A DNA stretch of 64,000 nt, from contig CAXUDL010000027.1 in NCBI GenBank assembly GCA_964249855.1, positions 2,953 to 66,952 on the forward strand, given 5' to 3'. The DNA comes from an uncultured Rhizobacter sp. (GTDB lineage Bacteria; Pseudomonadota; Gammaproteobacteria; Burkholderiales; Burkholderiaceae_C). The stretch's first letter is position 1, and each line of letters opens with the position of its first letter. Position numbers and translations under genes: made by a program. This document shows, one piece after another, positions 30,152 to 48,469 of the stretch. The notes under the pieces were generated by a model. It was not told the DNA's origin, did not search any database, and saw only the letters and a list, made by a program, of their open reading frames with translations.

Positions 30152-30931
30152 ATGAGAGCAGTGATCCTTGCAGGGGGCTTCGGCACTCGGCTCAGTGAGG
30201 AAACGTCGACGCGTCCCAAGCCGATGGTCGAGATCGGCGGCAGGCCGATCCTCTGGCACATCCTGAAGACCTACGCGCATCACGGCGTCAACGACTTCGT
30301 CATCTGCTGCGGATACAAGGGCTATGTCATCAAGGAATACTTTGCGAATTACTTTTTGCACATGTCGGACGTGACCTTCGACATGCGGAACAACCGGATG
30401 GAGGTGCATCAGAAACGCGCCGAACCGTGGAATGTGACGCTTGTCGACACCGGCGACGATTCGATGACCGGGGGCCGGCTGCTGCGGGTCGAGAAGTTCC
30501 TGCGCGATGAGGAAGCGTTCTGCTTTACGTACGGCGACGGCGTGGGCGATGTGGACATCGGCGCGACACTGGCCTTTCACCGTCGACATGGCAAGCTTGC
30601 AACGCTCACGGCGACGCGCCCGCCGGGGCGCTTTGGGGCGCTTGACATCCACGAGGAGGAAGTTCAGAGCTTCACCGAAAAGCCTCAGGGCGACGGCGGA
30701 ATGATCAACGGTGGCTTCTTCGTGCTCAGTCCGGAAGTGCTTCGCTACTGCACGCAGGGAGACGCCACGGTTTGGGAACAGGAGCCGCTGCAGCGGCTTG
30801 CGAAAGAGGGGCAGCTCATGGCGTACGAGCACACCGGCTTCTGGCAACCGATGGACACGCTGCGCGACAAGCACCACCTCGAGGAGCTGTGGACTTCCGG
30901 CAAGGCACCGTGGAAGCTTTGGGATCGATGA
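30152..30931 (+). CDS. rfbF: glucose-1-phosphate cytidylyltransferase
   Basis: [38 protein letters not shown]...GGRL, full-length match in style to RfbF/DdhA. Confidence 0.9.
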
Positions 30932-32031
30932 CCGCTTTGCGCGCCGGTCCCTCGGCTTCGCGCCGGCAGCTTCCTGATCCCGCCTACTGGCGCGGCCGGC
31001 GCGTCTTGCTGACGGGGCACACGGGCTTCAAGGGAAGCTGGCTTGCGCTGTGGCTGCAGTCGATGGGCGCGACGGTACGCGGGCTGGCGCTCGAACCACC
31101 GACAGTGCCTTCGCTGTTCGTGGAAGCCAGGGTCGCCTCCGGCATGGACAGCCTCGTTGTCGACGTCGCCGATCGCGCCGGTGTCCAGGCCGCCCTATCG
31201 GCGCACCAGCCGGAGGTCGTACTGCATTTGGCGGCGCAATCCCTCGTGCGCCACTCGTACGTCGATCCCGTGACCACCTACGTCACCAATGTGCTCGGCA
31301 CAGTCAACGTGCTGGAGGCGACGCGACATGTCGCCGGAGTCCGGGCCATCGTGAACGTGACTACCGACAAGTGCTACGAGAACCAAGAGTGGCTCTGGGG
31401 TTACCGCGAGAATGAAGCGATGGGCGGCCGCGACCCTTATTCGAGCAGCAAGGGTTGCGCAGAACTCGTGTCGGCCGCCTACCGCGACTCGTTCCTACGC
31501 GATGCCGGGATTGGCCTGGCAACGGCGCGTGCCGGCAACGTCGTCGGAGGCGGAGACTGGGCCCAAGACCGTCTGGTGCCCGACTTCTTCCGCGCCGCGG
31601 CGGCGGGCACGGCCCTGCGCGTCCGGCATCCGGAAGCGACGCGGCCCTGGCAACACGTGCTCGAGCCTCTCGCGGGGTATCTGATGCTGGCCGAGCGGCT
31701 GCATGCGGGCGAACCGGCGGCGGCTTCGGCCTTTAATTTTGGCCCGTCCGAGAACGACGTCCAGCCGGTGGCAGAGATTCTCGATCGGCTGACGGCCCTA
31801 GTGCCAGGAACGCGCTGGCACGCGGAGAAGTCGGACGAAATGCACGAAGCCGGCCTTTTAAAGCTCGATAGTGCCAAGGCGCGCAGCATCCTTGGCTGGC
31901 GGCCTCGTTTCGACCTCGAGCGGACGCTCGCTACGACAGCGGCCTGGTTCGAGGCGCACTCGCGTGGAGAGGACATGCGCGAGACCACGCTCGCGCAGAT
32001 CGCCGCCTATACGACTCCCGATACGGCATGA
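30928..32031 (+). CDS. rfbG: CDP-glucose 4,6-dehydratase
   Basis: [17 protein letters not shown] (Rossmann), YSSSKGCAE (YxxxK), TDKCYEN. ATG 30928 overlaps the rfbF stop (ATGA). Confidence 0.9.
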
Positions 32032-32600
32032 ATCGTTTCAAACTTATGCGGACCCCAATCGCCGGCGTCGTCCGGGTCGATCGTCACCGCCTGATCGATG
32101 CCCGGGGATTCTTCAGCCGCTTGTTCTGCAGCGACGAGCTCGCCGAAGCCGGGCTCGGTTTTGCCGTCGCGCAGATCAACCACACTCTCACGCATCGGCA
32201 GGGCGCCGCGCGCGGACTTCACTTCCAACATCCGCCCCACGCGGAAGTGAAACTTGTGAGCTGCTTGCGAGGCGCCGTGTTCGATGTCGCGGTTGATGTG
32301 CGCGTTGGTTCGCAGACGTTCCTGCAATGGCACGCGGAAGTTCTGTCGGCCGAGAACGCGCGCTCACTGTTGATTCCGCAAGGATGCGCACACGGCTTTC
32401 AAGCCCTGACGGACGACTGCGAGCTGGTCTACCTGCACTCGCATCGCTACGAGCCGTCCGCGGAGGGAGCGCTCAATCTTCTAGACCCGCGCTTGTCCAT
32501 CCCTTGGCCTGAGCCGCTGACCGAGCTCTCCGACCGCGACCGGGGGCATTCGCTCCTTGGCGCTGAATATCAAGGAATTGAAGTAGGAACACCCAGATGA
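32028..32600 (+). CDS. RmlC-like cupin sugar-nucleotide 3,5-(or 5-)epimerase
   Basis: RGFFSRLF..., GLHFQHPPHAEVKLVSCLRGAVFDVAVDVR, AHGFQAL and YLHS match the dTDP-4-dehydrorhamnose 3,5-epimerase fold. ATGA overlaps on both sides. Confidence 0.8.
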   Translation: MNRFKLMRTPIAGVVRVDRHRLIDARGFFSRLFCSDELAEAGLGFAVAQINHTLTHRQGAARGLHFQHPPHAEVKLVSCLRGAVFDVAVDVRVGSQTFLQWHAEVLSAENARSLLIPQGCAHGFQALTDDCELVYLHSHRYEPSAEGALNLLDPRLSIPWPEPLTELSDRDRGHSLLGAEYQGIEVGTPR

Positions 32601-33823
32601 ACTGCCGCCACTGCGGAGCCGAGCTCACCGCCTGCTTCGCCGACCTCGGCACCGCGCCTCCGTCGAACGCCTACCTGAGCGAGGGCGAACTGGGTCGCCC
32701 GGAGACGTGGTATCCGCTCCGCGTTTTCGCCTGCGATCGGTGCAGGCTCGTGCAGACGGAAGACTATGCCCACCGCGCTGCGCTGTTCTCACCCGACTAT
32801 GCTTATTTCAGCTCATTCTCGACAACTTGGCTCGCTCATGCGGAGCGCTATGTTCAAGAGATGACAGATCGCTTCCGGCTTGGAGCCGAATCGCGTGTCG
32901 TCGAGGTGGCGTCCAACGACGGCTACCTTCTTCGGTTCGTCTGCGAGCGTGGCATCCCCTGCGTTGGCATCGAGCCGACGGCGAGCACCGCGGCGGCGGC
33001 GCGAGCGAAAGGGGTGGAGACGATCGAGGAATTCTTCGGCACCGGGCTCGCGGACCGGTTGGCCGCCGAAGGTCGAACCGCCGATTTGACGGTGGCGAAC
33101 AACGTGCTTGCCCACGTGCCGGACATCAATGACTTCGTCGCCGGTTTCGCACGACTGCTAAAGCCGCACGGTGTCGCGACATTTGAATTCCCGCACCTTG
33201 AGCAGCTTGTAGCGAAGGGCCAGTTCGACACGATCTACCACGAGCACTTCTCGTACCTTTCGCTGATTACGGTCGAGCGGATCTGCCGAGCCAACGGGCT
33301 TCGTGTATTCGACGTCGGGTCGCTGCCCACGCACGGTGGAAGCCTGCGAGTGTTCGCCCAGCGCAGCGACACCGGCGCGCACCCTGTCTCGCCGTCGGTC
33401 GCCGCCTTGCTAGAGCACGAACGCAGCATGGGGGTCGACACCGCCGCGTACTACGCCGGATTCCAGGATCGCGTGGAGTCCATCTGCGATGCATTGCTCG
33501 CCTTCCTGCTCAATGCTCGGGCTGAGGGCCGCAAGGTGGTTGGATATGGTGCGGCGGCCAAGGGCAACACCTTGTTCAATCACGCCGGCGTGCGACGCTC
33601 GCTCGTGCAATGGGTCGTCGACCGAAACCCTGCGAAGCAAGGGAAATACCTCCCAGGTAGCCGAATCCCAGTCGTCGGCGAGGAGCGCCTGCGAGACGAG
33701 CAGCCTGACTTCGTGTTGATCCTGCCGTGGAATCTCAAGGCCGAGGTGGTGTCGCAACTCGCCTACATCCGGGATTGGGGTGGCCGCTTCGTCACGGCCG
33801 TCCCTTCGCTCGCGATCGAATGA
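32597..33823 (+). CDS. NDP-hexose C-methyltransferase (TylCIII-like: Zn-ribbon + class I MTase + C-MTase C-domain)
   Basis: N-terminal CRHCGAEL...CDRCRLVQ zinc ribbon, YAYFSSFS, SAM box VVEVASNDGYLL and HEHFSYLS, hallmark motifs of the sugar 3-C-methyltransferase family as I recall it. Confidence 0.75.
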   Translation: MNCRHCGAELTACFADLGTAPPSNAYLSEGELGRPETWYPLRVFACDRCRLVQTEDYAHRAALFSPDYAYFSSFSTTWLAHAERYVQEMTDRFRLGAESRVVEVASNDGYLLRFVCERGIPCVGIEPTASTAAAARAKGVETIEEFFGTGLADRLAAEGRTADLTVANNVLAHVPDINDFVAGFARLLKPHGVATFEFPHLEQLVAKGQFDTIYHEHFSYLSLITVERICRANGLRVFDVGSLPTHGGSLRVFAQRSDTGAHPVSPSVAALLEHERSMGVDTAAYYAGFQDRVESICDALLAFLLNARAEGRKVVGYGAAAKGNTLFNHAGVRRSLVQWVVDRNPAKQGKYLPGSRIPVVGEERLRDEQPDFVLILPWNLKAEVVSQLAYIRDWGGRFVTAVPSLAIE

Positions 33824-34695
33824 AGGTCGCGGTGACGGGGGCGAGCGGCTTCCTCGGACGCCACGTCCTGGAACGCCTGCTCTGCCGCCGCGATCTGCGC
33901 ATCGTCGCAAGCTCTCGCAGCAAGCCAGCCGCTTTGCCCGAGGGCCTCGCTGGCCTGGCCTGGGTGCCGATGGACATGGCAGATGCATCGGAGCAGTCCT
34001 TTGTCAGGCTCGGAGAGCCGGATGTGCTGATCCACATGGCTTGGGGCGGATTGCCGCGCTACCGCTCGTTGCATCACTATGAAGTCGAGCTCGGACTTCA
34101 GTACCGGTTCCTCGCGGCCCTGCTGAGGGCGGGACTGGCCCGCCTCGTCTGCACCGGCACCTGCTTCGAGTACGGCATGCGCTTCGGACCGCAGCACGAG
34201 AGCGATGTGCCAGACCCTGGCAACCCCTACGGCCTGGCCAAGCACGTACTGCGGCGCCAGCTCGACTTCCTGAACGGTGAAAAGTCTTTCTCGCTGCTAT
34301 GGGCCCGGCTGTTCTACCTGTACGGGCCCGGACAAGCCCCTTCCTCGCTGTACTGTCAGTTGCATGCGGCCATCGAGCGAGGCGACGCGGCGTTTCCGAT
34401 GTCGGGTGGGGAGCAGCTGCGCGATTTCCTGCCGGTGACCGAGGCTGCGGAATCGATCGTGCAGCTGGCGCTCGATTCCGGCGCCGAGGGCTTGGTCAAC
34501 ATCTGCTCCGGGCAGCCGGTGTCGGTGCGCTCGCTCGTCGAACGCTGGCGCGACGAAGCGAGGGCGAGCCTGGTCCTAGAGCGCGGCCGCTTCCCTTACC
34601 CCAACCACGAGCCGCTGGCGTTCTGGGGTTCGCGCGAGCGCCTGGACGCGCTGCTGCGGCGCGCAGATTTGACGGCCGGTTCTGCTGCTTCGTGA
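33820..34695 (+). CDS. NAD(P)-dependent SDR, likely NDP-4-keto-sugar reductase
   Basis: MKVAVTGASGFLGRHV (GxxGxxG), YGLAKHV (YxxxK). ATG 33820 overlaps the C-MTase stop. Confidence 0.75.
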   Translation: MKVAVTGASGFLGRHVLERLLCRRDLRIVASSRSKPAALPEGLAGLAWVPMDMADASEQSFVRLGEPDVLIHMAWGGLPRYRSLHHYEVELGLQYRFLAALLRAGLARLVCTGTCFEYGMRFGPQHESDVPDPGNPYGLAKHVLRRQLDFLNGEKSFSLLWARLFYLYGPGQAPSSLYCQLHAAIERGDAAFPMSGGEQLRDFLPVTEAAESIVQLALDSGAEGLVNICSGQPVSVRSLVERWRDEARASLVLERGRFPYPNHEPLAFWGSRERLDALLRRADLTAGSAAS

Positions 34696-36044
34696 ATACG
34701 CTGCTGATCCTGGCGGCTTCGCTGTGGTCGATCGCCATGCTGATCGTCAGCCTGCGACTGCCGACGCCGCTCGGACGGTACCGACCTGCGAGCCTGCTGA
34801 TCGCGCTGCTCTGCGCTTACAACGTCGTTCCCTTCCTCCTCGTAGGCCTTTTCCGCACCGAGGCCGAGGCCTTGATCAGCGGCGTCTTCGAGTACTACGC
34901 GCCAGACCGACTGGTCGCGCTCCTGGGCTACGTCGCGGCAGTCACCACGTCGACGGTCGGCGGCCAGGCGCTAGCCCTTCACCTGGGCGGGCGCCAAAGG
35001 CGGCAGGGCCGCAGGGCCCCTGTCTGGTTTCCAGCGTCGGCGATGGATTCGCGGCGGGCCGGGATGGTGGCCTTCTGGCTGGCGACGGCGCTGGCGGCGA
35101 CCCTTTCCTATCAATTGCGCGGCTTGCTGCTCGGTGGCTACCATGAGTCGTTCGGCGAGGACGATGCCGAAGTGTTTCACCGCGGCACGCTGTCGTCCGC
35201 CTTCGTGTTGATGCTCGTCGCCTATCTGTTCGTCCGCTTCGTGTCTCAGGGCCGCTGGCTCGCCAAGCCGCACCGTCTCGCCGACCTGGCGTCGACGCTT
35301 GCCTTGCTAGGGATCGGCGGGGCGCTGCTGTCGCTCGGCGGGCGGCTCTATGTCGTTTCGGCGCTCGTGCTGTTGCTGATGCTCCGCGCGAGTCGCAACG
35401 CGGCGCCCTTGCGGAACGCGCGGCGCCTCTGGCTGCTGACAGGCGCGGGGATGACCGCCATCTCGCTGGTCGGCTTGTGGCGGACCGATGCCGACTTCTC
35501 GATTACCGCGCTGCTGATCAACCTGCTGTCCGAGCCAGGGTTCGTCTCGATCTCGCTCGCCTCCCTGATGGGGGCGAACGCCGTTCCGGCGCTGCACGCG
35601 CCCACGTTCCTGCTCGGCGACGCGGTCGGGCTCGCGCCGGCCTTCGTCTACCCGGACAAGATCAATCGGCTGTTTTCTCTTCGGCAGGAATTCGACGTCA
35701 GTTCGCCCTTCGGCGGGTTGAACGGCTTGGCGTCGACGACTGCCAATTTCGGCTGGGCCGGCGCGATCGTCGTTGCGTTCTTGCTCGGTGCCGCGACCAC
35801 CGCTTTCTCGGTATGGGCGTCACGCGCGTCACCGTACGCAAGACGGCGCTGGGTAGTCGTCGTAGCCACTGCGCTGCCGGCGTTGTCGCTGTACCGCGAC
35901 CCGTTTGTGATCTCGGTCTACAAAAACCTGCTGCAGAATGCGATCGTCTTCCCGTTGTTGCTCGTGGTGGCGGGGCACGGCTGGGGAATTCTCCGACGCG
36001 GCGGTGTGAGACTCCCGACCGCCTCGGCCGCACGGCCCGCGTGA
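34692..36044 (+). CDS. polytopic membrane protein, probable O-antigen/repeat-unit polymerase (Wzy-like)
   Basis: About 450 aa from GTG 34692 (GTGA overlap), with at least 10 hydrophobic segments and no soluble domain. Wzy assignment rests on context and topology only. Confidence 0.5.
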   Translation: MNTLLILAASLWSIAMLIVSLRLPTPLGRYRPASLLIALLCAYNVVPFLLVGLFRTEAEALISGVFEYYAPDRLVALLGYVAAVTTSTVGGQALALHLGGRQRRQGRRAPVWFPASAMDSRRAGMVAFWLATALAATLSYQLRGLLLGGYHESFGEDDAEVFHRGTLSSAFVLMLVAYLFVRFVSQGRWLAKPHRLADLASTLALLGIGGALLSLGGRLYVVSALVLLLMLRASRNAAPLRNARRLWLLTGAGMTAISLVGLWRTDADFSITALLINLLSEPGFVSISLASLMGANAVPALHAPTFLLGDAVGLAPAFVYPDKINRLFSLRQEFDVSSPFGGLNGLASTTANFGWAGAIVVAFLLGAATTAFSVWASRASPYARRRWVVVVATALPALSLYRDPFVISVYKNLLQNAIVFPLLLVVAGHGWGILRRGGVRLPTASAARPA

Positions 36045-36046
36045 CA

Positions 36047-36976
36047 ATGCTTAGCCGTCGGATCCGGATTTACTACCACCTCTTCAACGGACCATCCTGG
36101 CAGCCCGTCTGGGCGATGCATCGTCCTCGACTCCAAACCTTGATCGAACACGACGCCGTCGATCGGCTCGTCGTCTGCGCCTTTGGCTTTGACGCCAAGC
36201 CGGAGCTCGGCTTGCAAGTGCGGCACGGCGTCGACTTGCGGCTGTCGCGGCGGTTGCCGACGCTGGTCAACGAGTTCGATACGCTCGCCGAATTGCGCCG
36301 CGATGCCTGCGGGCCGGATCCGGCGTTCGCACACGTAGCCTATCTGCACAGCAAGGGCGCGTCGGCGCCGCGGTTGACGCTTCAGGCATCGAGTTGGACC
36401 GACTGGCTGAGCGACGCACACGCGGGGCTGGTCACTCGCTTCGACGGACTGGCGCGTGCGGGGTTCGGCGCTGCCGGCGCCAATCTCGCGTGGGGCGTGT
36501 TCGACCATTTCGAGCCGCCACGCTTGCACTACTCCGGCAATTTCTGGTGCGCGACGCGCGAGCAGGTGCGCGCGGCGCCTTCAATCAACCCCGACCAGCG
36601 CCAGTCATCGATACGGCACAATGCTGAATGGTGGCTTTCGGCGGGCTCGAAGCTTCCGCATTTCAACCTCTTTTGCTCCGGGCTAGACCATTACGCCCCC
36701 GAGGGGGTCGAGATCGACCGGCTCCGGTTGGCCGCCCGGCTTTCTGCACTCGACGGTGCCCTCGACGTGGTCGGGCGGGCCATGGCGCAACAGGACTTCG
36801 TGTGCCGTCAGCTGCGGTCGGCTATCGGAGCGGCGCCGTGGCGCCGATGCCTAGCCATCATGTCGCTGGCTGCGCTGCCCTATGGCCGCTGGCCGCGACT
36901 CTTCTTGGCCCATGACCGGGCCATGCGGCTTCTCGGATCGCGGAAATCGACCTACTTCTACTGCCCCGAAACGTGA
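36047..36976 (+). CDS. hypothetical soluble protein, family not recognised (YLHSKG ... HYSGNFWCA motifs)
   Basis: 309 aa from ATG 36047, 2 nt after the Wzy-like stop. The GT2 start overlaps its stop (GTGA). Coding-like composition. Confidence 0.6.
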   Translation: MLSRRIRIYYHLFNGPSWQPVWAMHRPRLQTLIEHDAVDRLVVCAFGFDAKPELGLQVRHGVDLRLSRRLPTLVNEFDTLAELRRDACGPDPAFAHVAYLHSKGASAPRLTLQASSWTDWLSDAHAGLVTRFDGLARAGFGAAGANLAWGVFDHFEPPRLHYSGNFWCATREQVRAAPSINPDQRQSSIRHNAEWWLSAGSKLPHFNLFCSGLDHYAPEGVEIDRLRLAARLSALDGALDVVGRAMAQQDFVCRQLRSAIGAAPWRRCLAIMSLAALPYGRWPRLFLAHDRAMRLLGSRKSTYFYCPET

Positions 36977-38013
36977 ACACCCCTGCGCCGGAAGCCTTGC
37001 TGGGATTCGCCATCCCTGTCTATAACCGACCCGAATTCCTTGACTCAGCGCTTGCGAGCATCGTGCCGCAGGCCGGGCCTATCGGCGCACCGATCTTTAT
37101 CCCGGACAACGCTTGCGGACCGACGCACGTCGAGGTGATTGCCCGCTGGCGGCAACGCCATCCGAACATCGTCCACGAGATCAACGACACCAACATCGGC
37201 ATCGACGCCAACGTCGACAAGGCTATCGCACGTTGCCCTGCGCGCTATGTTTTCGTTCTCGGCGATGACGACCTGATCCTTCCGGGCTTCGTTAGTGCCG
37301 TGCTCGACGTGCTGCGTCGCGACCAACCCGCACACATCCTGTGCGCGTACATGTATCTCGACAACGCCCAACGGCCGATTACCGGCCGTTCCGTCCTGCC
37401 AGCCGAAGCCGCCGGCCGGACTTTTGGGGCGGTCCTCGTCGAGCACGGATGGGCGCTCGGCTTCATCGGTGCCCACATTTTCAACCGTGCACGCTACACC
37501 CGCTGCGCGGCCTCGGCGATGGGCTCCTACTTCAATCACGTTGCCAAGATCATCGCGGTCGTACAGCCGGATGATCAGATCCCGATCATCACCACGCCGC
37601 GGGTCGGAAACCGGGCCGACGACGAAACGACGCCGACCTGGTCGGGAGACCGGCTCAACGTCCTGTTCGGGCTAGAGCGAGTGATGCGGCAGTCGATGGC
37701 AGGGCGTTATGCCCCACAGGACATCGAAGCGGCGGTATTCAACGCCCGCAGACAGCTCGGTTATGCGCAGACCGTGCGTTTGCTTTACTGGGCCGCACTG
37801 GCGAAGGCGTCGGGTCGCGCCGACGGCTACTGGCAGTCTTTGGCCGCGCTTGTGCCGTTCGAGCAATACCGTCGTCTTCGGCGGTTTCCTGCACCGTTGC
37901 TGCCGCTCCTGGCCCGATTGTTCCCGCTGGCTCGCCGACTCAAGCGCTACCGGGCCAAGCGCGCGTTGATCGCCTTTTCGCCAACGCCGACGGCGCGCGA
38001 CTCCGCGGCGTGA
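36973..38013 (+). CDS. glycosyltransferase family 2
   Basis: FAIPVYNRPEFLDSALASI..., PDNACGP and LGDDDLI (DxD) GT-A signatures. Confidence 0.8.
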   Translation: MNTPAPEALLGFAIPVYNRPEFLDSALASIVPQAGPIGAPIFIPDNACGPTHVEVIARWRQRHPNIVHEINDTNIGIDANVDKAIARCPARYVFVLGDDDLILPGFVSAVLDVLRRDQPAHILCAYMYLDNAQRPITGRSVLPAEAAGRTFGAVLVEHGWALGFIGAHIFNRARYTRCAASAMGSYFNHVAKIIAVVQPDDQIPIITTPRVGNRADDETTPTWSGDRLNVLFGLERVMRQSMAGRYAPQDIEAAVFNARRQLGYAQTVRLLYWAALAKASGRADGYWQSLAALVPFEQYRRLRRFPAPLLPLLARLFPLARRLKRYRAKRALIAFSPTPTARDSAA

Positions 38014-38056
38014 AGGCGCTCGCGGAGCGCGGCTTGAAAGGCCTGCGGGGGGGCGA

Positions 38057-39352
38057 ATGAGCATCGTCCGAAACAGCGCCTGGAACACCTTGGGGGTGGT
38101 GGTCCCTTCCCTTGTTGCTATTCCGACATTCGCCTTCTATGCGCGCGTCCTCGGCGTCGAACGGCTGGGATTGCTGACCATTGCCCTGGCGGCGATGGGC
38201 TACGCATCGAGTCTCGACCTCGGACTTTCGAGGGCGCTGATCAGGCAGGTTGCCATCGATCAGGATCAACCGGCAACGGTGCGATCGCTGATGAGCACAG
38301 CAACACTGTGCGTCTTCGCCTTGTCGTTGGCGCTCGCACTTGGCGGGTGGTTGGCCGCACCGGCGCTGGCGGGCTACCTAAAGGTGTCGGCCGATGTCCG
38401 GCCGGACGCGATCGCAGGATTCCACTGGTTGAGTCTCACGATCGTTCCCTACCTTCTTGCCATCGTCGGCTCCGCGTACTTCGAAGGGCGCGAGGACTTC
38501 GTCGCCGTGAACGTCATACGCACCGTCACGGCGCTGGTGAACGCCGTCGGCGGGGTGGCGGCACTCCTGTTGAGCCCGACGCTCGAGGCAGCGCTGATTG
38601 CGTTGTTTGTTGCACGCCTGCTCACCTGCGCCGTGACCTTTCACTGGTATTGGGTCCGCATCAAGCGAGATGCGGGCGGACGGGTGCCCGCGTTCCGCGC
38701 CGACCTGCTGTCCAAGCTGCTGCACTATGGAAGTTGGCTGACCGTCAGCAACATCGTCGGACCGCTGATGTCGCACTTCGATCGGTTCGTGCTCTCCAAC
38801 ATTTCGGGTGCGAGCGTGGTCGCCTTCTACACGGTGCCCGCCGAAGCGGTCGTCCGCGCGTCGATGTTCCCGTCCGCCGTGTCGAGAGCGCTGTTTCCCC
38901 GTCTCAGTCGCGGCGGCCTTTCCTCGGAATCGGACCGTCGAATCGCGCGTCGACTCACCCTTTCGAGCTGCGCCCTAACGCTACTCCCACTGTTCATCGG
39001 TGCCAACTGGGTGCTTGGGGTATGGATCGGGCCCGAATACGTCGGAACGCCTGGACTGGTGCTGCGCATCCTCGTGATCGGCTGGTTCTTCAACGCCCTT
39101 GCGCTCGACCCATTCACTCACCTACAGGCCAAAGGGCAATCGAGGGTGACCGCGCTGATCCATGCCGGCGAGCTGCTGCCGTACCTCGGGCTCCTGTACG
39201 TGCTCACGCTGAACTTCGGCATAGTCGGAACCGCCGTCGCCTGGACGTTGCGGTCGCTGATCGACTATCTGCTCATGGCCTTCTGCGCACGGACGCCGCG
39301 AGCCGTCATCGCTTCGCACGCGCCTGGCGCAGTCGGTGAGCCAGGCGGCTGA
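38057..39352 (+). CDS. wzx: Wzx-type oligosaccharide flippase (MOP superfamily)
   Basis: MSIVRNSAWNTLGVVVPSLVAIPTFAFYARVLGVERLGLLTIA..., about 12 TM segments, the typical polysaccharide-biosynthesis-protein N-terminus. Confidence 0.8.
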   Translation: MSIVRNSAWNTLGVVVPSLVAIPTFAFYARVLGVERLGLLTIALAAMGYASSLDLGLSRALIRQVAIDQDQPATVRSLMSTATLCVFALSLALALGGWLAAPALAGYLKVSADVRPDAIAGFHWLSLTIVPYLLAIVGSAYFEGREDFVAVNVIRTVTALVNAVGGVAALLLSPTLEAALIALFVARLLTCAVTFHWYWVRIKRDAGGRVPAFRADLLSKLLHYGSWLTVSNIVGPLMSHFDRFVLSNISGASVVAFYTVPAEAVVRASMFPSAVSRALFPRLSRGGLSSESDRRIARRLTLSSCALTLLPLFIGANWVLGVWIGPEYVGTPGLVLRILVIGWFFNALALDPFTHLQAKGQSRVTALIHAGELLPYLGLLYVLTLNFGIVGTAVAWTLRSLIDYLLMAFCARTPRAVIASHAPGAVGEPGG

Positions 39353-40040
39353 CGACCGGGACAGGCGGGGTGATGAAGTCCTCGATCGACGAATGGCCGC
39401 GGCGCTCATGCGATGGCGCCTCCATGGGCCGCTTCTCGATGACCAGAACGCTGTCGTAATAGTGAAGCGAATGAACCGAGCGGGTGAAGTCGGACACCGC
39501 GAGCTGATTCTCATCGCGCGAATGCCAGGCATTGATCCGGTCGATAAAGTCCTTGCTGTATTCGATGAAGGAACCGGGGCGACGCACCCCCCCGCCGAAG
39601 TGCTTCCAGTACGAGGTGTGCAGGTCTTCGATGAGGTAGACGCCATTGGCCTTGACCTTGCCGAACAGTTCCTCGAACGTGTGTTTCTGCTGACGCATCG
39701 TGTGGCCACCGTCGTCAATCAGAATGTCAATATCGGGAACCTCCGTTGCGACCGAACGCAAGAAGTTGCGGTCTTCCTGGTCGCCGATCAAGATGCGGAT
39801 ACCAGGCCCCTCAAATTGTTTGCAGGCGGCGTTGATGTCGACGCCGAAGATCTCGACCTGATCGCCGAAATAGTCTTGCCACATCTGCACAGAGCCGCCC
39901 TGCGAGACGCCGAACTCGAGCAGCTTGACCGGTCGACCGCGAAAGCGAGAGAAGTGCCTATCGTAGATTTCGAAGTAATGACGCCACTTGTGGATCAGGC
40001 GTCCATCGTGTCGATCAAAGAATTTTTGCAGGTCGTTCAT
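39306..40040 (-). CDS. class I SAM-dependent methyltransferase (sugar O-methyltransferase-like)
   Basis: MNDLQKFFDRHDGRLIHKWRHYFEIYDRHF..LLEFGVSQGGS..IDDGGHTMRQQ..YLIEDLHTSYW. ATG at 40040. It is the only minus-strand gene in module A and overlaps the wzx 3' end by 47 nt. Lower GC. Confidence 0.75.
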   Translation of the reverse strand: MNDLQKFFDRHDGRLIHKWRHYFEIYDRHFSRFRGRPVKLLEFGVSQGGSVQMWQDYFGDQVEIFGVDINAACKQFEGPGIRILIGDQEDRNFLRSVATEVPDIDILIDDGGHTMRQQKHTFEELFGKVKANGVYLIEDLHTSYWKHFGGGVRRPGSFIEYSKDFIDRINAWHSRDENQLAVSDFTRSVHSLHYYDSVLVIEKRPMEAPSHERRGHSSIEDFITPPVPVVSRLAHRLRQARAKR

Positions 40041-40199
40041 GTGAAGTTGAGGCGTCTTTCTTCCGGCCGCGATGATAGTTCGACCCGAAGCTTGGCCCTG
40101 AAGCATGTCGGCGAGGCCGATGCTGAGCGGTAGACTCGCAGATGCCGATCTGCAGCCCGTCGGGCCCACGGCCGAGAATGCAGCGCGAGCCTTTTCATC

Positions 40200-41264
40200 T
40201 TGAACACAACGCCGTTCAAACGCTCGATTGACGATGACTGGCCGGCCGCCGGTCTCGAGCGCATCCTCGCATGTCCTGTCTGCCGCTCGCGGGCGCGCGA
40301 ACCGCTGCACCGCGCGCTCGAGGACGAGACGTTTCACACGGCGCCGGGCCGGTGGGACCTCTTTCGATGCCGGTCCTGCGCCTCGGCGTACCTCGATCCG
40401 CGGCCTTCAGAAGACACCATCGGACTTGCCTACGAGCGCTACTACACACATGGCGATAGCCCTGCGCCCACTGACGGCCGTCTGAAGGCGGCACTGCGCC
40501 GGGTGATCGATCGCTGGTCGTCTGCTTATGAGCGGCAGCGGCTGTTGCGGTCGCCCGTGACGCGCCTCGACCGCTGGCGCGCGAACGTCGTCGCCGCCAT
40601 CGGCCCGGCCAGGGAAGTGCTCGACGCGAAGTACCGGCACCTTCGGAGTGACAGCGCCCGACTGCGGGTGCTCGACGTGGGATGCGGCGATGGAGCGTTT
40701 CTCCGGCGCGCTCGCGACATCGGCTGCGACACCGAGGGCATCGACTTCGACGCCAACGCCGTCGCCGCCGCAAGACGCCAGGGCTTCGACGTAACGCTCG
40801 GGTCCATCGACACCTATTCGGACCTTCGCGATGCCTTCGACGTCATTACCTGCAACCACGTGATCGAGCACGTGCCGGACGCCTTGCATCTCCTCCGCGC
40901 GTTGCACCGACTGCTCAAGCCCGGCGGCCTGCTCTGGCTCGAGACCCCGAACGTCGACGCCGTCGGCCACGAGCTGTTTGGACGGCACTGGCGCGGCTTG
41001 GAGGTGCCGCGCCACGTGACGATATTCAGCCATCAAGGGCTGCTGCGAAGCGTCCGCGAAGCGGGATTTGAAATCCGCAATGCCACCCCGTGGAACTTCA
41101 AGCACATCCTCTACATGCATGCCGCTAGCCGTCAGTTGCAAACATCCGCCGGTGTTGGCGTCGGCAGGGTCGCCTCGCATTTCCGCGCTCTGTCGATGCT
41201 GGTCCGCGAAGCTTTGAATCCGGCACGGCGCGAGTTCGTTCTCGTGCGATGCCGCAAGCCCTGA
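40200..41264 (+). CDS. class I SAM-dependent methyltransferase with N-terminal Cys4 zinc ribbon
   Basis: CPVCRS...CRSCAS, SAM box VLDVGCGDGAFL, FDVITCNHVIEHVPD, LKPGGLLWLETPN. TTG start as in the track. Confidence 0.75.
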   Translation: MNTTPFKRSIDDDWPAAGLERILACPVCRSRAREPLHRALEDETFHTAPGRWDLFRCRSCASAYLDPRPSEDTIGLAYERYYTHGDSPAPTDGRLKAALRRVIDRWSSAYERQRLLRSPVTRLDRWRANVVAAIGPAREVLDAKYRHLRSDSARLRVLDVGCGDGAFLRRARDIGCDTEGIDFDANAVAAARRQGFDVTLGSIDTYSDLRDAFDVITCNHVIEHVPDALHLLRALHRLLKPGGLLWLETPNVDAVGHELFGRHWRGLEVPRHVTIFSHQGLLRSVREAGFEIRNATPWNFKHILYMHAASRQLQTSAGVGVGRVASHFRALSMLVREALNPARREFVLVRCRKP

Positions 41265-42445
41265 GCGCGTCGTCGGACGGCAGTCTTGATCCGGGCCGCC
41301 GTCCCGCGTCGACGCGCGCGCGCGCCGTTGCGGGCGGCCGCCCCGGTTCGCCGTTCGGGATCGGCTGCCTGATCGTCGCCCGCAATCTCGGCGACGCGGC
41401 CATGACCGCCCGAGTGGCGCAGTCGTTGATCGAGTCGGGCCGTTTTTCTCGGCTCGTCGTCTGGACGTTTCCGCAGGCGCGCTTTCTCTTCGACGCCCTG
41501 CCGGGGTGCCGAGTCGTGGTCTCCGACTTTCCAATGGGTGCCACGCTACGCCACTTCGGCCGCGGTGGATGGCGCAGCTTCGTCGAGGCGCTTCGCACAC
41601 TGCGGGTCATGCGTCCGGACACGTCGATCGAGCTTGTGGGCGACCTGCGCGAGCGGCTCGTCGCGGCGCTGATCGGCGCGCGTTTCCGCGTGTCCCCAGC
41701 GTGGCATCGGCGCCATCCGTTCCGTCACCACATCCGCCTGCCGGGCCCGCCCCGGGCCGGCGTCGCACCCGTCCCCGACGAGGTGCCCAACATCTATGCG
41801 GCGCAACGCCTGATCCTCGCACGCGACTTCGGCATCAACGTCAGCGCGACTGCTCGGATGGCGGCACCCCTGGAAGCGAGCCGTCGCTTGACAATCGGCT
41901 TCCATCCGTTCGCATCGCATCGCTGCAAAGCGTGGCCGGATGCGTGTTGGCGGGAATGGCTGCAGCAAGTCGGCTCGCGCGGACATCGCATCATCGGCTA
42001 CTGCGCCCCAGCAGACCGCGAGCGCCTCGCCAGCTTGATCCCAACCGGCCTCGCGAACGTCGCCCTCGTGACCGTGCCGTTGCCGCAGCTGCCGGACGCG
42101 ATGCGGCAGCTCGACGTGCTGGTCGGGCTCGATAGCTTCGCTGTGCACCTGGCCGACAAGGTCGGAGTGCGAAGCGTGGTCCTCGTGGGGCCGAACGATC
42201 CGCGTGTTTTCACGCCTCCCCGGGCGACCGCCGTGTTCGTGCCCGCGGCCTGTCCGATCCAGCCCTGCCACGGCAAGCCGCGCTGCGAAGGCACGTCGTT
42301 CGAATTCGCTTGCATGCGCTCGATCCCAGTGGCCGCAGTGACAGCGCTTGCCGAGGGGCACGACACGGCGACGTTGTCCGGCGTCGCCACGTACGTCCCG
42401 GCGCCGTCGGGCGGCGAGGGAGTTGAGCCATGCGCGACGTCCTGA
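41249..42445 (+). CDS. glycosyltransferase family 9 (heptosyltransferase-like)
   Basis: CLIVARNLGDAAM (compare ILVIRLSALGDVVM), CKAWP, LVGLDSFAVHLA and VVLVGPNDP are GT9 hallmarks. The start may lie downstream of 41249. Confidence 0.7.
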   Translation: MPQALSASSDGSLDPGRRPASTRARAVAGGRPGSPFGIGCLIVARNLGDAAMTARVAQSLIESGRFSRLVVWTFPQARFLFDALPGCRVVVSDFPMGATLRHFGRGGWRSFVEALRTLRVMRPDTSIELVGDLRERLVAALIGARFRVSPAWHRRHPFRHHIRLPGPPRAGVAPVPDEVPNIYAAQRLILARDFGINVSATARMAAPLEASRRLTIGFHPFASHRCKAWPDACWREWLQQVGSRGHRIIGYCAPADRERLASLIPTGLANVALVTVPLPQLPDAMRQLDVLVGLDSFAVHLADKVGVRSVVLVGPNDPRVFTPPRATAVFVPAACPIQPCHGKPRCEGTSFEFACMRSIPVAAVTALAEGHDTATLSGVATYVPAPSGGEGVEPCATS

Positions 42446-43215
42446 CGCTCTCAGTCGTGAGCCATGGTCACGGCGCACTGCTCGCTCGCTTGCTCGCTCA
42501 GCTCAACGCTGCCTCGGCGCTCCGCGGCATAGCGGTGTTCGTAACGCTCAACCTCGCCGACGAACCGCTCGACGTCGCGCGATATCAAAACCTCGCCCTC
42601 GAGGTGCGGCGCAACGACACGCCTCGTGGCTTCGGCCAAAACCACAATGCCGCCTTCGGGCGCTGCACCACGCCGTGCTTCGGCATCCTCAATCCCGACC
42701 TGGCCCTGGCGGCGAGCGAGCCCTTCACGGCCCTCGTCGAACGCTTGCTTGCTGAGCGAGACTCCGGCGCGGTGGCGCCGCAGGTCTTGTCCGCCGCGGG
42801 CTCGGTCGAAGACTCGGTCCGGGCCAACTTGACGCCGGCCTCGCTCTTTGCTCGCCAGTTACTGCGCCGACGCGAGCGCCTCGACACCCAGGTGCCGGCG
42901 CGTCGTGGAGTGCCCTTCTACTGGCTGGCCGGCATGTGCCTGGTCGTCGATTCGCAGGCGTTCCGTTTCGTCGGCGGATTCGACGAGCGTTACTTTCTCT
43001 ATTGCGAAGACTACGACTTGTGCGCGCGGCTCTACCTGTCGGGGCGGTCGCTCGTGGTCGAGCCACGCGCCCGAATCGTCCACGACGCGCGCCGCGACAG
43101 CCACGGCTCTCTTCGCCATCTGCGCTGGCACCTGCAGAGCCTGCTCAAGGTCTGGACATCGACAGCCTTCTGGCGCGTCACTCTCGGGCGTCACATGGCA
43201 TCCGGGCAAAGGTGA
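42430..43215 (+). CDS. glycosyltransferase family 2 (rhamnosyltransferase-like)
   Basis: LSVVSHGHGALL, NDTPRGFGQNHN and YFLYCEDYDLCARL motifs. Confidence 0.75.
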   Translation: MRDVLTLSVVSHGHGALLARLLAQLNAASALRGIAVFVTLNLADEPLDVARYQNLALEVRRNDTPRGFGQNHNAAFGRCTTPCFGILNPDLALAASEPFTALVERLLAERDSGAVAPQVLSAAGSVEDSVRANLTPASLFARQLLRRRERLDTQVPARRGVPFYWLAGMCLVVDSQAFRFVGGFDERYFLYCEDYDLCARLYLSGRSLVVEPRARIVHDARRDSHGSLRHLRWHLQSLLKVWTSTAFWRVTLGRHMASGQR

Positions 43216-43299
43216 AACGGCGTCGATGCCGCGCAACGCCCGGTGTCGGCGCCCGTTCCCCGTCCCGAATAATCCTTTAGTCGATCGTCGACCGCCACC

Positions 43300-44406
43300 A
43301 TGACCCATCTCATCGTCAGCTTCCTGACTTCGCTATTCGTCAACCTGGCCCTGATCCGCTCGGCGCGGCTTCATGGCGGGCTGTCGGCGGATGCGGACCT
43401 GACGGGACCGCAAAAATTTCATGTCGCGCCGGTGCCGCGAATTGGCGGCATCGGCGTGTTCATCGCGTCGGTGGTCGGCACGTCGTTCGCTTGGGTCCTC
43501 GTCGGGGCGGTGGCGCACGATGCAGCGCTACTGATGCTGTGCAGCTTGCCGGCGTTCCTGTCGGGTGTTGCCGAGGACCTGACGAAGAACGTCTCGCCGC
43601 GGCGACGCCTCTTCTTCACCTGTCTCTCGGCCGCGCTGGGCTGCTGGTTGCTTGGAGCGGTCCTGCCGCGCACGGACATCCCGGGCATCGACTTGCTGAT
43701 GCCGTGGCTGCCGTTTGCTGTCGGCCTCACGTTGCTCTCAGTGACCGGTGTCGCCAACGCGGTCAACATCATCGACGGATTCAACGGCCTCGCGTCGATG
43801 TGCGTGCTGCTGATCTTGCTGGCCATCGCCTATTGCGCAATGCGGGTCGGCGATAGCCTGGTCCTCACCATGGCGCTGATCTCGGCCGGCGCGGTCCTTG
43901 GTTTCTTCGTGTGGAACTTCCCGGTTGGGCTCGTTTTCCTGGGCGACGGTGGCGCTTACTTCCTCGGCTTCATCGTGGCTGAACTAGGCGTCCTGCTGAT
44001 TGCGCGCAATCCCACCGTCTCGCCGCTCTTCCCCCTGCTGGCTTGCGCTTACCCCATCTTCGAGACGCTCTTCACCATCTATAGACGCAAGATCCTTAAG
44101 GGCGTGCCGACCGGTGCACCGGACGGCATCCACCTCCACACGCTGATCCACCGACGTATCGTCCGGCAGGCCATCCGCGGCCTGAGCGGCGGCTTTGATC
44201 GGCGGCAGACGGTCCGCAACGCGATGACCTCGCCGTACCTCTGGCTCGTCTGCCTGTTCTCGGTGATGCCGAGCATCGTCTGGTGGGACGATTCACGAAT
44301 CCTCGCGACGTTCCTCCTGTTGTTCATCGTCTCCTACATTTGGCTCTACCGCTGCATCGTCCGCTTCGGTACACCGAAGTGGCTGATATTCGGCGACCAG
44401 CGCTAA
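43300..44406 (+). CDS. WecA/WbpL-type polyprenyl-phosphate HexNAc-1-phosphate transferase (MraY superfamily)
   Basis: NAVNIIDGFNGLA, FLGDGGAYFLGF, multiple TM segments; last gene of module A. Confidence 0.85.
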   Translation: MTHLIVSFLTSLFVNLALIRSARLHGGLSADADLTGPQKFHVAPVPRIGGIGVFIASVVGTSFAWVLVGAVAHDAALLMLCSLPAFLSGVAEDLTKNVSPRRRLFFTCLSAALGCWLLGAVLPRTDIPGIDLLMPWLPFAVGLTLLSVTGVANAVNIIDGFNGLASMCVLLILLAIAYCAMRVGDSLVLTMALISAGAVLGFFVWNFPVGLVFLGDGGAYFLGFIVAELGVLLIARNPTVSPLFPLLACAYPIFETLFTIYRRKILKGVPTGAPDGIHLHTLIHRRIVRQAIRGLSGGFDRRQTVRNAMTSPYLWLVCLFSVMPSIVWWDDSRILATFLLLFIVSYIWLYRCIVRFGTPKWLIFGDQR

Positions 44407-45340: not shown

Positions 45341-47254
45341 TCACCCGGGCCGATACTCGGCGACGTGACGCTGCAACCAGCGCTTGACTGCAGCGCGGCC
45401 AGACGTCGGCCCCGCCGTATCGAAGCTCTGCCCGAGGTCGGTCAAGAGCCGCACGCCGTCACTTGCGTCGAGCCGCGCGATCCGCAATCTCGGATGCGCA
45501 GACGCCACCGTCCGGTCCGCATCCGCCAGCAACTCCTCGTACAACTTCTCCCCCGGCCGTAGTCCCGTGAACACGATCCCGATCTCCCCCTCCCGGTGCC
45601 CGCTCAGTCGAATCAGATCCCGCGCCAGGTCCACGATCCGCACCGGCTCGCCCATGTCCAGCACGTGCACCTGCCCGCTCTGCGCGAGCACCGCCGCTTG
45701 CAGCACCAGCCGCGCCGCCTCCGGGATCGTCATGAAGTAGCGCGTGATCTCGGGGTGCGTCACCGTCACCGGCCCGCCCTTCGCGATCTGCTCCTTGAAC
45801 TTCGGGATCACGCTGCCGCTCGACCCGAGCACATTGCCGAAACGAACCGCGGAAAAGCGCGTGAGATGACCCTGCGTCGCCATGTGCGACAGCACCATCT
45901 CCGCCGCCCGCTTCGTCGCCCCCATCACGTTGGTCGGATTCACCGCCTTGTCGGTCGAGATCAGCACGAAGCGGTCGACGCCGACCTCCGCCGCCGCGGT
46001 CGCCGCATTCCACGTGCCGACCACGTTGTTCTGCAGCGCCGCCCAGGCGTTCTCGTCCTCCATCAACGGCACGTGCTTGAACGCCGCGGCGTGGAAGACG
46101 AGCTGCGGCCGCTGCGCCGCGAAGGTCGCGCGCAGGTGGGCGACATCCTTCACGTCACCCATCAGGCGCACCAGCGGCAGTTGCGGATGCAGCTCGCCCA
46201 GCTGCTGCTCGATCCGGTAGAGCGCGAACTCGCCCAGCTCGTAGAGAACGATCCGCCCGGGGCCGTAGCGCGCCACTTGGCGGCAGAGCTCGCTGCCGAT
46301 CGAGCCGCCCGCGCCGGTCACGAGCACGGTCTTGCCCGAGATCATCTCGGCGATGCCGGCCTCGTCGAGCTCGACCGGCTCGCGGCCGAGCAGGTCGTCG
46401 GGCTCGATGCTGCGCACGCGCTCGATGCGGGCGCTGCCCGACTGCAGCTCGCTCGCCGACGGCACGGTCAACACCTTGAGGCCCGTGCCCGCGGCGAGCG
46501 CGATCGCGCGGCGGCGTTCGGCGGCGGTGGCGCCGGGCAAGGCGACGATGGCGTGCGTGGCGTCGCCGCGGACCGCCGGATCGGTCACCGCCTCGAGCGG
46601 CCCGAGCACCGAGACGCTGCCGATGCGCGCATCGCGCTTGGCCGGGTCGTCGTCGAGCAGGCCGGTGACGATCCAGCCCTGCTGGTGGACCATCGCGAGC
46701 AGCCGCTGCGCCGCCTCGCCGGCACCGAGCACGACGGCGCGCCGCACACCGGCATCGCTGCCCGAGAGCCGCGACCGGATGTGCTCGTACAGCATCCGGT
46801 AGCCGACCCGCACCATGCACAGACCGATCAGCGTGATGAACGGGTGCAGCGCCAGCACCGCCCGCGGCACGGCCGTCAGCTGCGCCATCAGCACCGCGAC
46901 GGCACAGAAGAGCCCGGCCGCGCCGCAGGCGAGCGTCAGCCGCTTCACCTCGCCGAAGCCCGAGAAGCGCCACATGCCGCGCGGAATGCCGGCGAGCGAG
47001 AACACGGCGAGATAGACCGCGACGACGAAGACGAGCACACCGCCGTCGTAGCTCGGCCGCGCCTGCACCCAGCGCTCGAAGCCGAGGCGGAACAGATAGG
47101 TGACGTTCCAGCAGATCGCGACGACGACGCCGTCGACGGCGAGCGAGATCGGACGCCGGTGCGGTCGCACGCGCCCGAGGACGCGATCCAGGCGCTGCCA
47201 GAACAAGAGCGTCGACGCGTCGGCCCCGCGGGTGCCGACGTGCGGGCCGTTCAC
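45341..47254 (-). CDS. membrane-anchored UDP-HexNAc 4,6-dehydratase (WbpM/PglF/CapD family)
   Basis: Four N-terminal TM helices, then VLVTGAGGSIGSELCRQV, STDKAVNPTNVMGATKR. 637 aa, GTG start. Confidence 0.88.
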   Translation of the reverse strand: MNGPHVGTRGADASTLLFWQRLDRVLGRVRPHRRPISLAVDGVVVAICWNVTYLFRLGFERWVQARPSYDGGVLVFVVAVYLAVFSLAGIPRGMWRFSGFGEVKRLTLACGAAGLFCAVAVLMAQLTAVPRAVLALHPFITLIGLCMVRVGYRMLYEHIRSRLSGSDAGVRRAVVLGAGEAAQRLLAMVHQQGWIVTGLLDDDPAKRDARIGSVSVLGPLEAVTDPAVRGDATHAIVALPGATAAERRRAIALAAGTGLKVLTVPSASELQSGSARIERVRSIEPDDLLGREPVELDEAGIAEMISGKTVLVTGAGGSIGSELCRQVARYGPGRIVLYELGEFALYRIEQQLGELHPQLPLVRLMGDVKDVAHLRATFAAQRPQLVFHAAAFKHVPLMEDENAWAALQNNVVGTWNAATAAAEVGVDRFVLISTDKAVNPTNVMGATKRAAEMVLSHMATQGHLTRFSAVRFGNVLGSSGSVIPKFKEQIAKGGPVTVTHPEITRYFMTIPEAARLVLQAAVLAQSGQVHVLDMGEPVRIVDLARDLIRLSGHREGEIGIVFTGLRPGEKLYEELLADADRTVASAHPRLRIARLDASDGVRLLTDLGQSFDTAGPTSGRAAVKRWLQRHVAEYRPG

Positions 47255-47258
47255 CCTC

Positions 47259-47855
47259 TCACCTCCACCAGACGCGCCGCAGGGTCTGCCCGATCAGCCG
47301 CAGGTCGGTCGCGAGCGACATCGTCTCGACATAGCGCACGGAATGGCGCAGCTTCGTCGGCATCACCTCCTCGACGTAGACGCGCTCGGGGTCGCTCGCG
47401 AGGGCGAGCAGCGCGTTCTCGTCGCGGTACGCGATCGACGCCGGGTCGGTGATGCCCGGCCGCACACTCAGCACCTTGGCGCGAAGTTCGGCGGGGTAGA
47501 GCGCGACATAGCGCGGCACCTCGGGCCGCGGGCCGACGAGGCTCATGGTGCCGGCGATCACGTCGAACAGCTGGGGCAGCTCGTCGAGCTTGGTGCGGCG
47601 CAGGAGCCGGCCGACCCGGGTGATGCGCGGGTCGGCGCCGACGGTGATCTGCGGCCCGCTTCCGACCGCGTCCGCGCGCATGGTGCGGAACTTGTGGATG
47701 CGGAACGGCACGCCGCGCCGGCCGACTCTTTGCTGGCGGAAGAACACCGGACCGGGCGAATCGAGCTTGATGACGAGGGCGATGAGCACCATCGAGGGTG
47801 CCAAGACGAGCAGGGCGAAGGAGGCGGCGAACAGGTCGAACAGGCGCTTGGCCAT
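47259..47855 (-). CDS. small monotopic phosphoglycosyl transferase (PglC/WbaP-C-domain type bacterial sugar transferase)
   Basis: MAKRLFDLFAASFALLVLAPSMVLIALVIKLDSPGPVFFRQQRVG..., KFRTM, DELPQLFDV, SLVGPRP, PGITD. 198 aa from ATG 47855. Confidence 0.88.
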   Translation of the reverse strand: MAKRLFDLFAASFALLVLAPSMVLIALVIKLDSPGPVFFRQQRVGRRGVPFRIHKFRTMRADAVGSGPQITVGADPRITRVGRLLRRTKLDELPQLFDVIAGTMSLVGPRPEVPRYVALYPAELRAKVLSVRPGITDPASIAYRDENALLALASDPERVYVEEVMPTKLRHSVRYVETMSLATDLRLIGQTLRRVWWR

Positions 47856-47863
47856 CCGCAGGA

Positions 47864-48448: not shown

Positions 48449-48469
48449 GCGGCCTCCGCTGCGTGACCC

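Follow-up and report, generated by a model that had tools for sequence, protein, structure and literature searches.

Which activated sugar is made by the five consecutive genes that occupy positions 30152 to 34695, on the plus strand, of a 64,000-nucleotide stretch of DNA from an uncultured Rhizobacter sp. (the window), and where in the cell would that sugar be used? An earlier note on this DNA had proposed a pathway to a cytidine diphosphate (CDP)-linked 6-deoxy-3-C-methyl-L-hexose. Employing a combined approach of profile searches, structural matches, phylogeny and a survey of related loci, we find that the cassette is real, intact and widespread, that it very probably converts glucose-1-phosphate to a CDP-activated methyl-branched 6-deoxy sugar, and that it is predicted to represent a variant of a known pathway. 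A CDP-activated C-methyl 6-deoxyhexose thus remains the best reading, as is supported by the enzyme identities and by the linkage to rfbF and rfbG, while of the two finer details of the proposed product the position of the methyl group at C3 is not readable from the sequence and the L-configuration is one which we only infer. The best joint explanation, which we favour with moderate confidence, is that the five genes form one translationally coupled module at the head of a surface-polysaccharide island, that their product would be a CDP-6-deoxy-3-C-methyl-L-hexose of talo or manno configuration, and that this sugar would enter the repeat unit of a Wzx/Wzy-dependent surface polysaccharide.

The cassette opens with rfbF (30152-30931; 259 amino acids, aa), encoding a glucose-1-phosphate cytidylyltransferase, which is followed on the same strand by rfbG (30928-32031; 367 aa) for a CDP-glucose 4,6-dehydratase, by a gene for an RmlC-like cupin epimerase (32028-32600; 190 aa, PF00908), by a gene for a nucleoside diphosphate-hexose C-methyltransferase of the TylC3/TcaB9/KijD1 family (32597-33823; 408 aa, comprising a zinc ribbon, an S-adenosylmethionine (SAM) domain and a C-terminal domain) and by a gene for a short extended short-chain dehydrogenase/reductase (SDR; 33820-34695; 291 aa, PF01370), the latter predicted to act as an NADPH-dependent 4-ketoreductase. 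All five open reading frames are intact and their four junctions are ATGA overlaps of 4 nucleotides, as the earlier note had described. Its further claim, that the chain runs on by overlap into a Wzy-like gene, holds for the overlap, the GTG start of that gene (34692-36044, plus strand; 450 aa, a multi-pass membrane protein) lying inside a GTGA by which it is coupled to the stop of the SDR gene over 4 nucleotides, and less so for the label, as the protein, although it has six to nine hydrophobic segments, matches PF14296 with an E-value of only 0.005, below the cut-off.

The first two enzymes are firmly assigned by equivalog score. RfbF reaches 465.8 bits against TIGR02623 (cut-off 300.25) over residues 1-257 of its 259, and RfbG 470 bits against TIGR02622 (cut-off 278); the latter aligns to the Yersinia CDP-glucose 4,6-dehydratase (PDB 1rkx) with an E-value of 2e-125 and keeps both the TxDKCY motif with the dehydratase Asp-Lys pair (TTDKCY) and the PYSxSK motif with the Tyr-xxx-Lys of SDR enzymes (PYSSSK), which sets it apart from a C4-dehydrogenase variant. 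In the whole assembly, which is 97.7% complete and which was searched for genome-wide copies, rfbF is present as a single copy above the TIGR02623 cut-off, namely that of the cassette. Together these enzymes would form CDP-D-glucose from glucose-1-phosphate and CTP and convert it to CDP-4-keto-6-deoxy-D-glucose. The genes for E1 (RfbH) and E3 (RfbI), which would lead from this intermediate to 3,6-dideoxyhexoses, had been noted as absent from the window; for E1 this was confirmed in both the window and the assembly, where nothing exceeds the cut-off (the best genome match to NF011936 scores 154 bits against a cut-off of 423), E3 not having been searched for. Since no E1 was found, a CDP-3,6-dideoxyhexose route for the cassette is considered unlikely. 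The DegT protein encoded at 48470-49627 was considered for the role of E1 and rejected as PseC/ArnB-like.

The third protein matches PF00908 with an E-value of 5.7e-57, misses the RmlC equivalog (142.5 bits against TIGR01221, cut-off 155.75) and keeps, in an alignment to PDB entry 1dzr, the equivalents of His63, Lys73, Tyr133 and Asp170. The true rmlC of the genome is located on another contig (C4), where it scores 246 bits against TIGR01221 and is part of a complete deoxythymidine diphosphate (dTDP)-rhamnose (rml) gene set, and because of this separate set, rmlB to rmlC, the epimerase of the cassette is a dedicated, divergent second paralogue. Its predicted task would be epimerisation adjacent to the keto group.

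Assignment by hidden Markov models, which the earlier note had put forward as a check on the fourth gene, yields the full three-domain architecture of a C-methyltransferase (PF08421, 76 bits; PF13489, 55 bits; PF08484, 216 bits). The protein aligns end to end with the crystallised enzymes KijD1 (E-value 5e-74), TcaB9 and MtmC, at E-values ranging from 5e-74 to 4e-69, and retains the four zinc-binding cysteines (CxxC...CxxC) as well as the Y-x-E-H motif (IYHEHF), aligned with their equivalents in KijD1. The residues of the latter motif presumably fulfil the roles of Tyr222, Glu224 and His225 of TcaB9, which were reportedly worked out by Bruender and Holden in 2012. No other protein with a PF08484 domain is encoded in the genome. 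The enzyme would transfer the methyl group of SAM to an enolate carbon, most likely C3.

The final enzyme carries a GxxGxxG motif (TGASGFLG), a catalytic Thr (GTC) and a YxxxK motif (YGLAK), each of them present in 90% or more of 41 orthologues, while the residues SSRS after strand beta-2 suggest the use of NADP(H); it would reduce the 4-keto group at the expense of NADPH. Family profiles, PDB matches and the kept catalytic residues thereby bear out the five enzyme identities of the earlier note.

Relatives of the methyltransferase were found in at least 588 species-representative genomes (one genome per species), and the best 80 loci, with 51-66% identity, were analysed for gene content. These loci span Pseudomonadota, Bacteroidota, Planctomycetota, Verrucomicrobiota, Cyanobacteriota, Acidobacteriota, Spirochaetota, Chloroflexota and one metagenome-assembled genome of an Asgard archaeon. 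The order rfbF-rfbG-epimerase-methyltransferase is kept in 65 of the 80 and all five genes are present in 38, and the recurrence of this order argues that the arrangement in the window is not due to chance. The cassette frequency, which the earlier note had wished to see surveyed, is also considerable closer to home: in an even sample of the taxonomic order to which the window belongs, the methyltransferase (E-value of 1e-80 or below) is encoded in 40 of 299 good genomes, or approximately 13%, and in 34 of 145 genera, and six of the 25 species genomes searched in its genus, its own included, have a close homologue (E-value at most 1e-130). More than 8000 protein clusters match, and among the named ones listed only generic names are found (e.g. 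for Variovorax, Rhizobacter and Thiocapsa); nor is RefSeq any more specific in annotating a Desulfolutivibrio plasmid that carries an identical five-gene set. Cultured candidates for carrying the cassette are Variovorax paradoxus or V. boronicumulans, Methylophilus methylotrophus DSM 46235, Propionivibrio dicarboxylicus DSM 5885 and Desulfolutivibrio sulfodismutans DSM 3696.

These data bear on the carrier of the sugar. CDP is indicated because the methyltransferase directly follows rfbF, rfbG and the epimerase gene in those 65 loci, across many phyla, because the only rfbF of the genome sits in the cassette, and because the dTDP-rhamnose genes are found elsewhere with a true rmlC of their own. 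They also bear on the epimerase, which is retained beside the methyltransferase in 72 of the 80 loci and in a second gene order as well, and which is therefore under selection. This second order, rfbF-rfbG-methyltransferase-epimerase, in some cases followed by an SDR gene, was observed in several genomes of the same taxonomic order (L094-L109, e.g. L102:7114-11464), the methyltransferases being approximately 50-57% identical to that of the window. Since the methyltransferase tree does not follow taxonomy, and since cassettes elsewhere are not accompanied by the glycosyltransferases, Wzx and Wzy of this island, the cassette behaves as a mobile module that is plugged into varied glycan loci.

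Directly after the methyltransferase gene, 41 of the 80 loci have a gene for an SDR like that of the window, 12 have one for a DegT aminotransferase and five have one for a hexapeptide acyltransferase. Reduction and transamination are the two standard fates of 4-keto sugars, and because SDR and aminotransferase alternate at this position the product of the four-gene core is very probably a CDP-4-keto-6-deoxy-C-methyl-hexose, of which the SDR of the window would be the 4-ketoreductase. The loci in which a DegT aminotransferase replaces the SDR (e.g. L011:7179-8345, L017:7224-8330 and L027:7179-7718), and those with the hexapeptide acyltransferase, are predicted to yield CDP-linked 4-amino(acyl)-4,6-dideoxy C-methyl sugars.

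Unbiased clustering of neighbouring genes revealed that the cassette regularly has a sixth member, namely a PF04989 'rhamnosyl O-methyltransferase/CmcI' gene, which lies on the same strand and at most 5 kb downstream in 37 of the 80 loci (L004:8192-8941, L006:8132-8917 and 35 others). This CmcI-type gene is absent from the window, the single weak match in the genome being on another contig. As the O-methyltransferase typical of the cassette is missing, the nucleotide sugar is probably not O-methylated, and any O-methylation would have to come from other methyltransferases of the island, perhaps after glycosyl transfer.

Further variants of the gene set were observed on plasmids. On pSymB of Sinorhizobium meliloti 1021 (L089:5151-8218) rfbF, rfbG and a C-methyltransferase gene are contiguous, with no epimerase gene between them; no SDR like that of the cassette was found within 7 kb, the PLSDB record being unannotated there. 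On the Brachyspira hyodysenteriae plasmid pBHZ526 (approximately 32 kb; L092:4530-8215) rfbF is followed by a radical SAM protein gene at the position of the 4,6-dehydratase, an RmlC-like epimerase gene and a gene for a C-methyltransferase 50% identical to that of the window, an arrangement that is a different way to activate a CDP-sugar. A search with a weak query detected no flagellin gene next to the cassette in 16 loci from the same taxonomic order, and no Azotobacter occurs among the 80 best loci or among the best 120 matches to the S. meliloti pSymB enzyme.

Among known systems, the cassette is best described as the CDP-sugar pathway of Bacillus cereus with an RmlC-like epimerase added. 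In strain ATCC 14579, Li et al. in 2017 reportedly described an operon for a cytidylyltransferase, a 4,6-dehydratase, a C3-methyltransferase and a 4-reductase which leads to 3-C-methyl-6-deoxy-gulose and -allose; its products belong to the D-gulo and D-allo series. The two systems have in common a cytidylyltransferase, a dehydratase, a TylC3-type methyltransferase, an SDR 4-reductase, the CDP carrier and a 3-C-methyl-6-deoxyhexose product, which for the window is a prediction. They differ in that the B. cereus operon has exactly four enzymes and no epimerase, whereas here an RmlC-like epimerase is placed between dehydratase and methyltransferase, in that the methyltransferase of the window belongs to a separate, epimerase-linked clade, and in context, the B. 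cereus sugars being constituents of spore glycans and the present cassette being part of a Gram-negative Wzx/Wzy island. The same four-gene order without an epimerase is found on a B. cereus-group plasmid, the encoded proteins being 56%, 43%, 44% and 27% identical to the first, second, fourth and fifth enzymes of the cassette, respectively.

PMC7725333 treats the CDP-cereose and CDP-cillose pathways of B. cereus as experimentally established, and its supplement places B. cereus Q81B31 and five other entries in a single family of nucleotide-sugar C-methyltransferases characterised by experiment. The statement in the earlier note that the characterised TylCIII-type enzymes act on dTDP sugars is therefore outdated. 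Going by accession and length, the five companions of Q81B31 probably include TylC3, NovU, TcaB9 and KijD1.

At which carbon, then, would the methyl group be placed? Most likely at C3, the position used by the CDP enzyme of B. cereus. By HMMER bit scores the methyltransferase reaches 397 bits against the B. cereus-type CDP enzyme (C3) and is equidistant, at approximately 240 bits and 35-40% identity, from actinomycete enzymes acting at C3 (KijD1, 253 bits; TcaB9, 244 bits; MtmC, 237 bits) and from two which we take to be C5-methylases (SgcA3 of the C-1027 pathway, 245 bits; NovU of the novobiocin pathway, 237 bits). In the tree, its clade and the B. cereus-type enzyme share one side of a branch with 98% support in the Shimodaira-Hasegawa-like approximate likelihood ratio test (SH-aLRT) while SgcA3 falls on the other, and the epimerase-linked methyltransferases form a clade separate from the epimerase-less forms of B. 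cereus and S. meliloti. C3 is favoured because, among relatives of characterised type, the closest acts at C3 of a CDP sugar, and because all CDP-linked C-methyl sugars known to us (vinelose, cereose and cillose) are 3-C-methyl sugars. The reaction of a C3-methylase runs through an enolate that is planar at C3, so that any earlier epimerisation at this carbon would be lost again; with the methyl group at C3, a conserved epimerase would thus matter at C5 and an L-sugar would be obtained, and the 'rhamnosyl' O-methyltransferase partner of PF04989 fits such an L-rhamnose-like product. CDP-vinelose, too, is a 3-C-methyl sugar of the L-talo series.

Several observations weigh against this interpretation. 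The regiochemistry appears labile in the family: NovU (C5; P0207) and MtmC (C3; PDB 4rv9) score 449 bits against each other and yet methylate different carbons, for which reason the switch must lie inside a tight clade, few residues must set it, and the carbon cannot be read from sequence or tree; phylogeny was accordingly rejected as a predictor of C3 versus C5. The plasmid-borne B. cereus-group enzyme that served as reference shares no 90% cluster with any entry tied to the characterised ATCC 14579 protein. The best PDB match of the epimerase is NovW (115.7 bits, RmlC scoring 111.8), a 3-mono-epimerase that partners a C5-methylase, and since the 3-epimerases NovW and ChmJ and the 3,5-epimerase RmlC all score 104-116 bits against it, mono- and di-epimerases are not separable by sequence. 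The SDR shares no more than 27% identity with the reductase of the B. cereus-type operon, and its best PDB matches are 4-epimerases as well as reductases. The functions of the enzymes in epimerase-containing cassettes are, moreover, predicted from sequence, and 3-C-methyl sugars are described as 'quite uncommon' in known glycans (PMC9912281), which is odd in view of the frequency of the genes.

In an alternative reading the cassette follows the logic of noviose on a CDP carrier, the epimerase being 3-specific like NovW and methylation occurring at C5 as in NovU and SgcA3, with a CDP-5-C-methyl-6-deoxyhexose bearing a C5 gem-dimethyl group as product. The ranking of NovW above RmlC, the like scores of the methyltransferase against C5 and C3 enzymes, the closeness of these enzymes within the family and the five-enzyme logic of the novobiocin sugar pathway (NovV/T/W/U/S) are all compatible with it, as are epimerase-methyltransferase fusions among the relatives of NovU and SgcA3. 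We nonetheless regard it as unlikely, given that the group of the B. cereus CDP-linked C3-methylase is the nearest of characterised type by both score and tree, that the CDP-linked C-methyl sugars named above are all 3-C-methyl, and that no 5-C-methyl sugar is known to us from any polysaccharide; to our knowledge, 5-C-methyl (gem-dimethyl) 6-deoxyhexoses are confined to a few antibiotics and have never been seen in a glycan. Were it true, a noviose-like 5-C-methyl sugar borne on CDP would be part of a Gram-negative surface polysaccharide. The fusions mentioned are proteins of approximately 600 aa (P0197, P0214, P0220, P0233, P0236 and P0237) in which PF00908 lies inside the C-methyltransferase architecture, i.e. 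natural fusions of epimerase and methyltransferase.

Methylation at C3 could also be combined with a D-series product resembling cereose, cillose or virenose, if the epimerase acted at a single carbon and left C5 uninverted, or were catalytically idle. NovW and ChmJ are examples of mono-epimerases that possess the complete RmlC catalytic set, and they score as well as RmlC, and the B. cereus-type operon arrives at D-series sugars without any epimerase. A D-series product is nonetheless deemed improbable: the epimerase gene is retained in 72 of the 80 loci and in a second gene order, a 3-epimerase would be redundant before a C3-methylase acting via the enolate, and the epimerase-linked methyltransferases stand apart from the epimerase-less forms in the tree. 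That the methyltransferase, epimerase and SDR should act on dTDP-4-keto-6-deoxyglucose from the rml genes, leaving rfbF and rfbG to serve another product, is very improbable indeed: a complete dTDP-rhamnose set is available on contig C4 and all crystallised relatives of the methyltransferase bind dTDP-sugars, but the link to rfbF and rfbG is tight across many phyla and is sealed here by 4-nucleotide overlaps, no other consumer of CDP-4-keto-6-deoxyglucose was found in the genome and no RfbH above the cut-off, and the family includes a characterised enzyme that uses CDP (PMC7725333).

The CDP-6-deoxy-3-C-methyl-L-hexose favoured here invites comparison with other branched sugars. Actinomycetes make nogalose (SnogF/SnogG2/SnogC), mycarose (TylC3, MtmC), tetronitrose (TcaB9), kijanose (KijD1) and noviose (NovW/NovU/NovS) by means of a 4,6-dehydratase, an RmlC-like epimerase, a C-methyltransferase and a 4-ketoreductase of the same families, although on dTDP and for secondary metabolites, where the present cassette is predicted to use CDP and to supply a surface polysaccharide. 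CDP-vinelose (CDP-6-deoxy-3-C-methyl-2-O-methyl-L-talose), a metabolite of Azotobacter vinelandii known since the 1960s, is a CDP-linked 3-C-methyl 6-deoxy-L-hexose, the very output to be expected from RfbF and RfbG together with a 3,5-epimerase, a C3-methylase and a 4-reductase, but it is 2-O-methylated. The link to vinelose drawn in the earlier note stands for the type of sugar and is weaker, for this genome than for many others, for vinelose itself, which is not predicted here because the CmcI-type O-methyltransferase of other loci is missing; the predicted product, lacking the O-methyl group, would be of the direct precursor type. As the note had supposed, no paper defining the genes of vinelose was found in a literature search, nor indeed any paper mentioning vinelose. 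In the lipopolysaccharide of Coxiella burnetii, a guanosine diphosphate (GDP)-linked route to virenose has been proposed in which only in silico evidence supports the methylation (PMC3539893, PMC3204966); it resembles the present case in yielding a 6-deoxy-3-C-methyl hexose of an O-antigen with a proposed TylC3-like methyltransferase, and differs in that it derives from GDP-mannose and leads to a D-gulo product.

The surroundings of the cassette suggest where its product would be used. While the window has a GC content of approximately 70-75%, the block from 30152 to about 44400 is lower (0.61-0.70 per gene, against 0.70-0.75 in the flanks), and since Wzx, the Wzy-like protein, a WecA-type initiating transferase and glycosyltransferases share this low-GC island with the cassette, use in a surface glycan is indicated. 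As labelled by Pfam and NCBIfam profiles, the remainder of the island (36047-44406) comprises a gene for a soluble protein of 309 aa (36047-36976, plus strand) between the Wzy-like gene and that of a family 2 glycosyltransferase (GT2; 36973-38013), the Wzx flippase gene (38057-39352), a methyltransferase-like gene (39306-40337) with a weak Methyltransf_24 match (E-value 3e-4) that is the sole minus-strand gene of the island, and genes for a class I methyltransferase (40200-41264), a GT9-like protein (41249-42445), a GT2-like protein (42430-43215) and the WecA-type transferase (43300-44406). For the 309-aa protein neither Pfam nor NCBIfam gave a match, and no relative was found in approximately 90 cassette-bearing loci. 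The two methyltransferases nearby accompany the cassette only irregularly, in four and five of those loci; homologues of the minus-strand one (35-49% identity) neighbour the cassette in one Coxiellaceae locus and in three loci from Chitinophagales, of which two belong to Chitinophagaceae. Beyond the island, the minus strand carries another glycan module, convergent with the first and richer in GC (45341-56386), with a WbpM/PseB-like dehydratase, a PseC/ArnB-like aminotransferase, GT2 and family 4 (GT4) glycosyltransferases, class I methyltransferases and a TylF-type O-methyltransferase. In the vicinity of the operon no ops/JUMPstart element (GGCGGTAG) was detected, and a promoter and terminator scan returned sites no more frequently than expected by chance.

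For the specialist, the chemistry proposed here would be an expected extension of the B. cereus pathway and thus a modest surprise, and as the enzymes required for a one-pot reaction are few and soluble, an experimental test would be easy. The main value of the finding lies in the disparity between genes that are common and sugars that are seldom reported, methyl-branched sugars being regarded as rare in bacterial glycans (PMC9912281). If the proposed pathway is correct, a whole class of surface sugars would have been overlooked, and the gene set would make the biosynthesis of CDP sugars of the vinelose type directly accessible, sugars that are known from chemistry and for which, as far as our literature search could find, there is no genetic definition.

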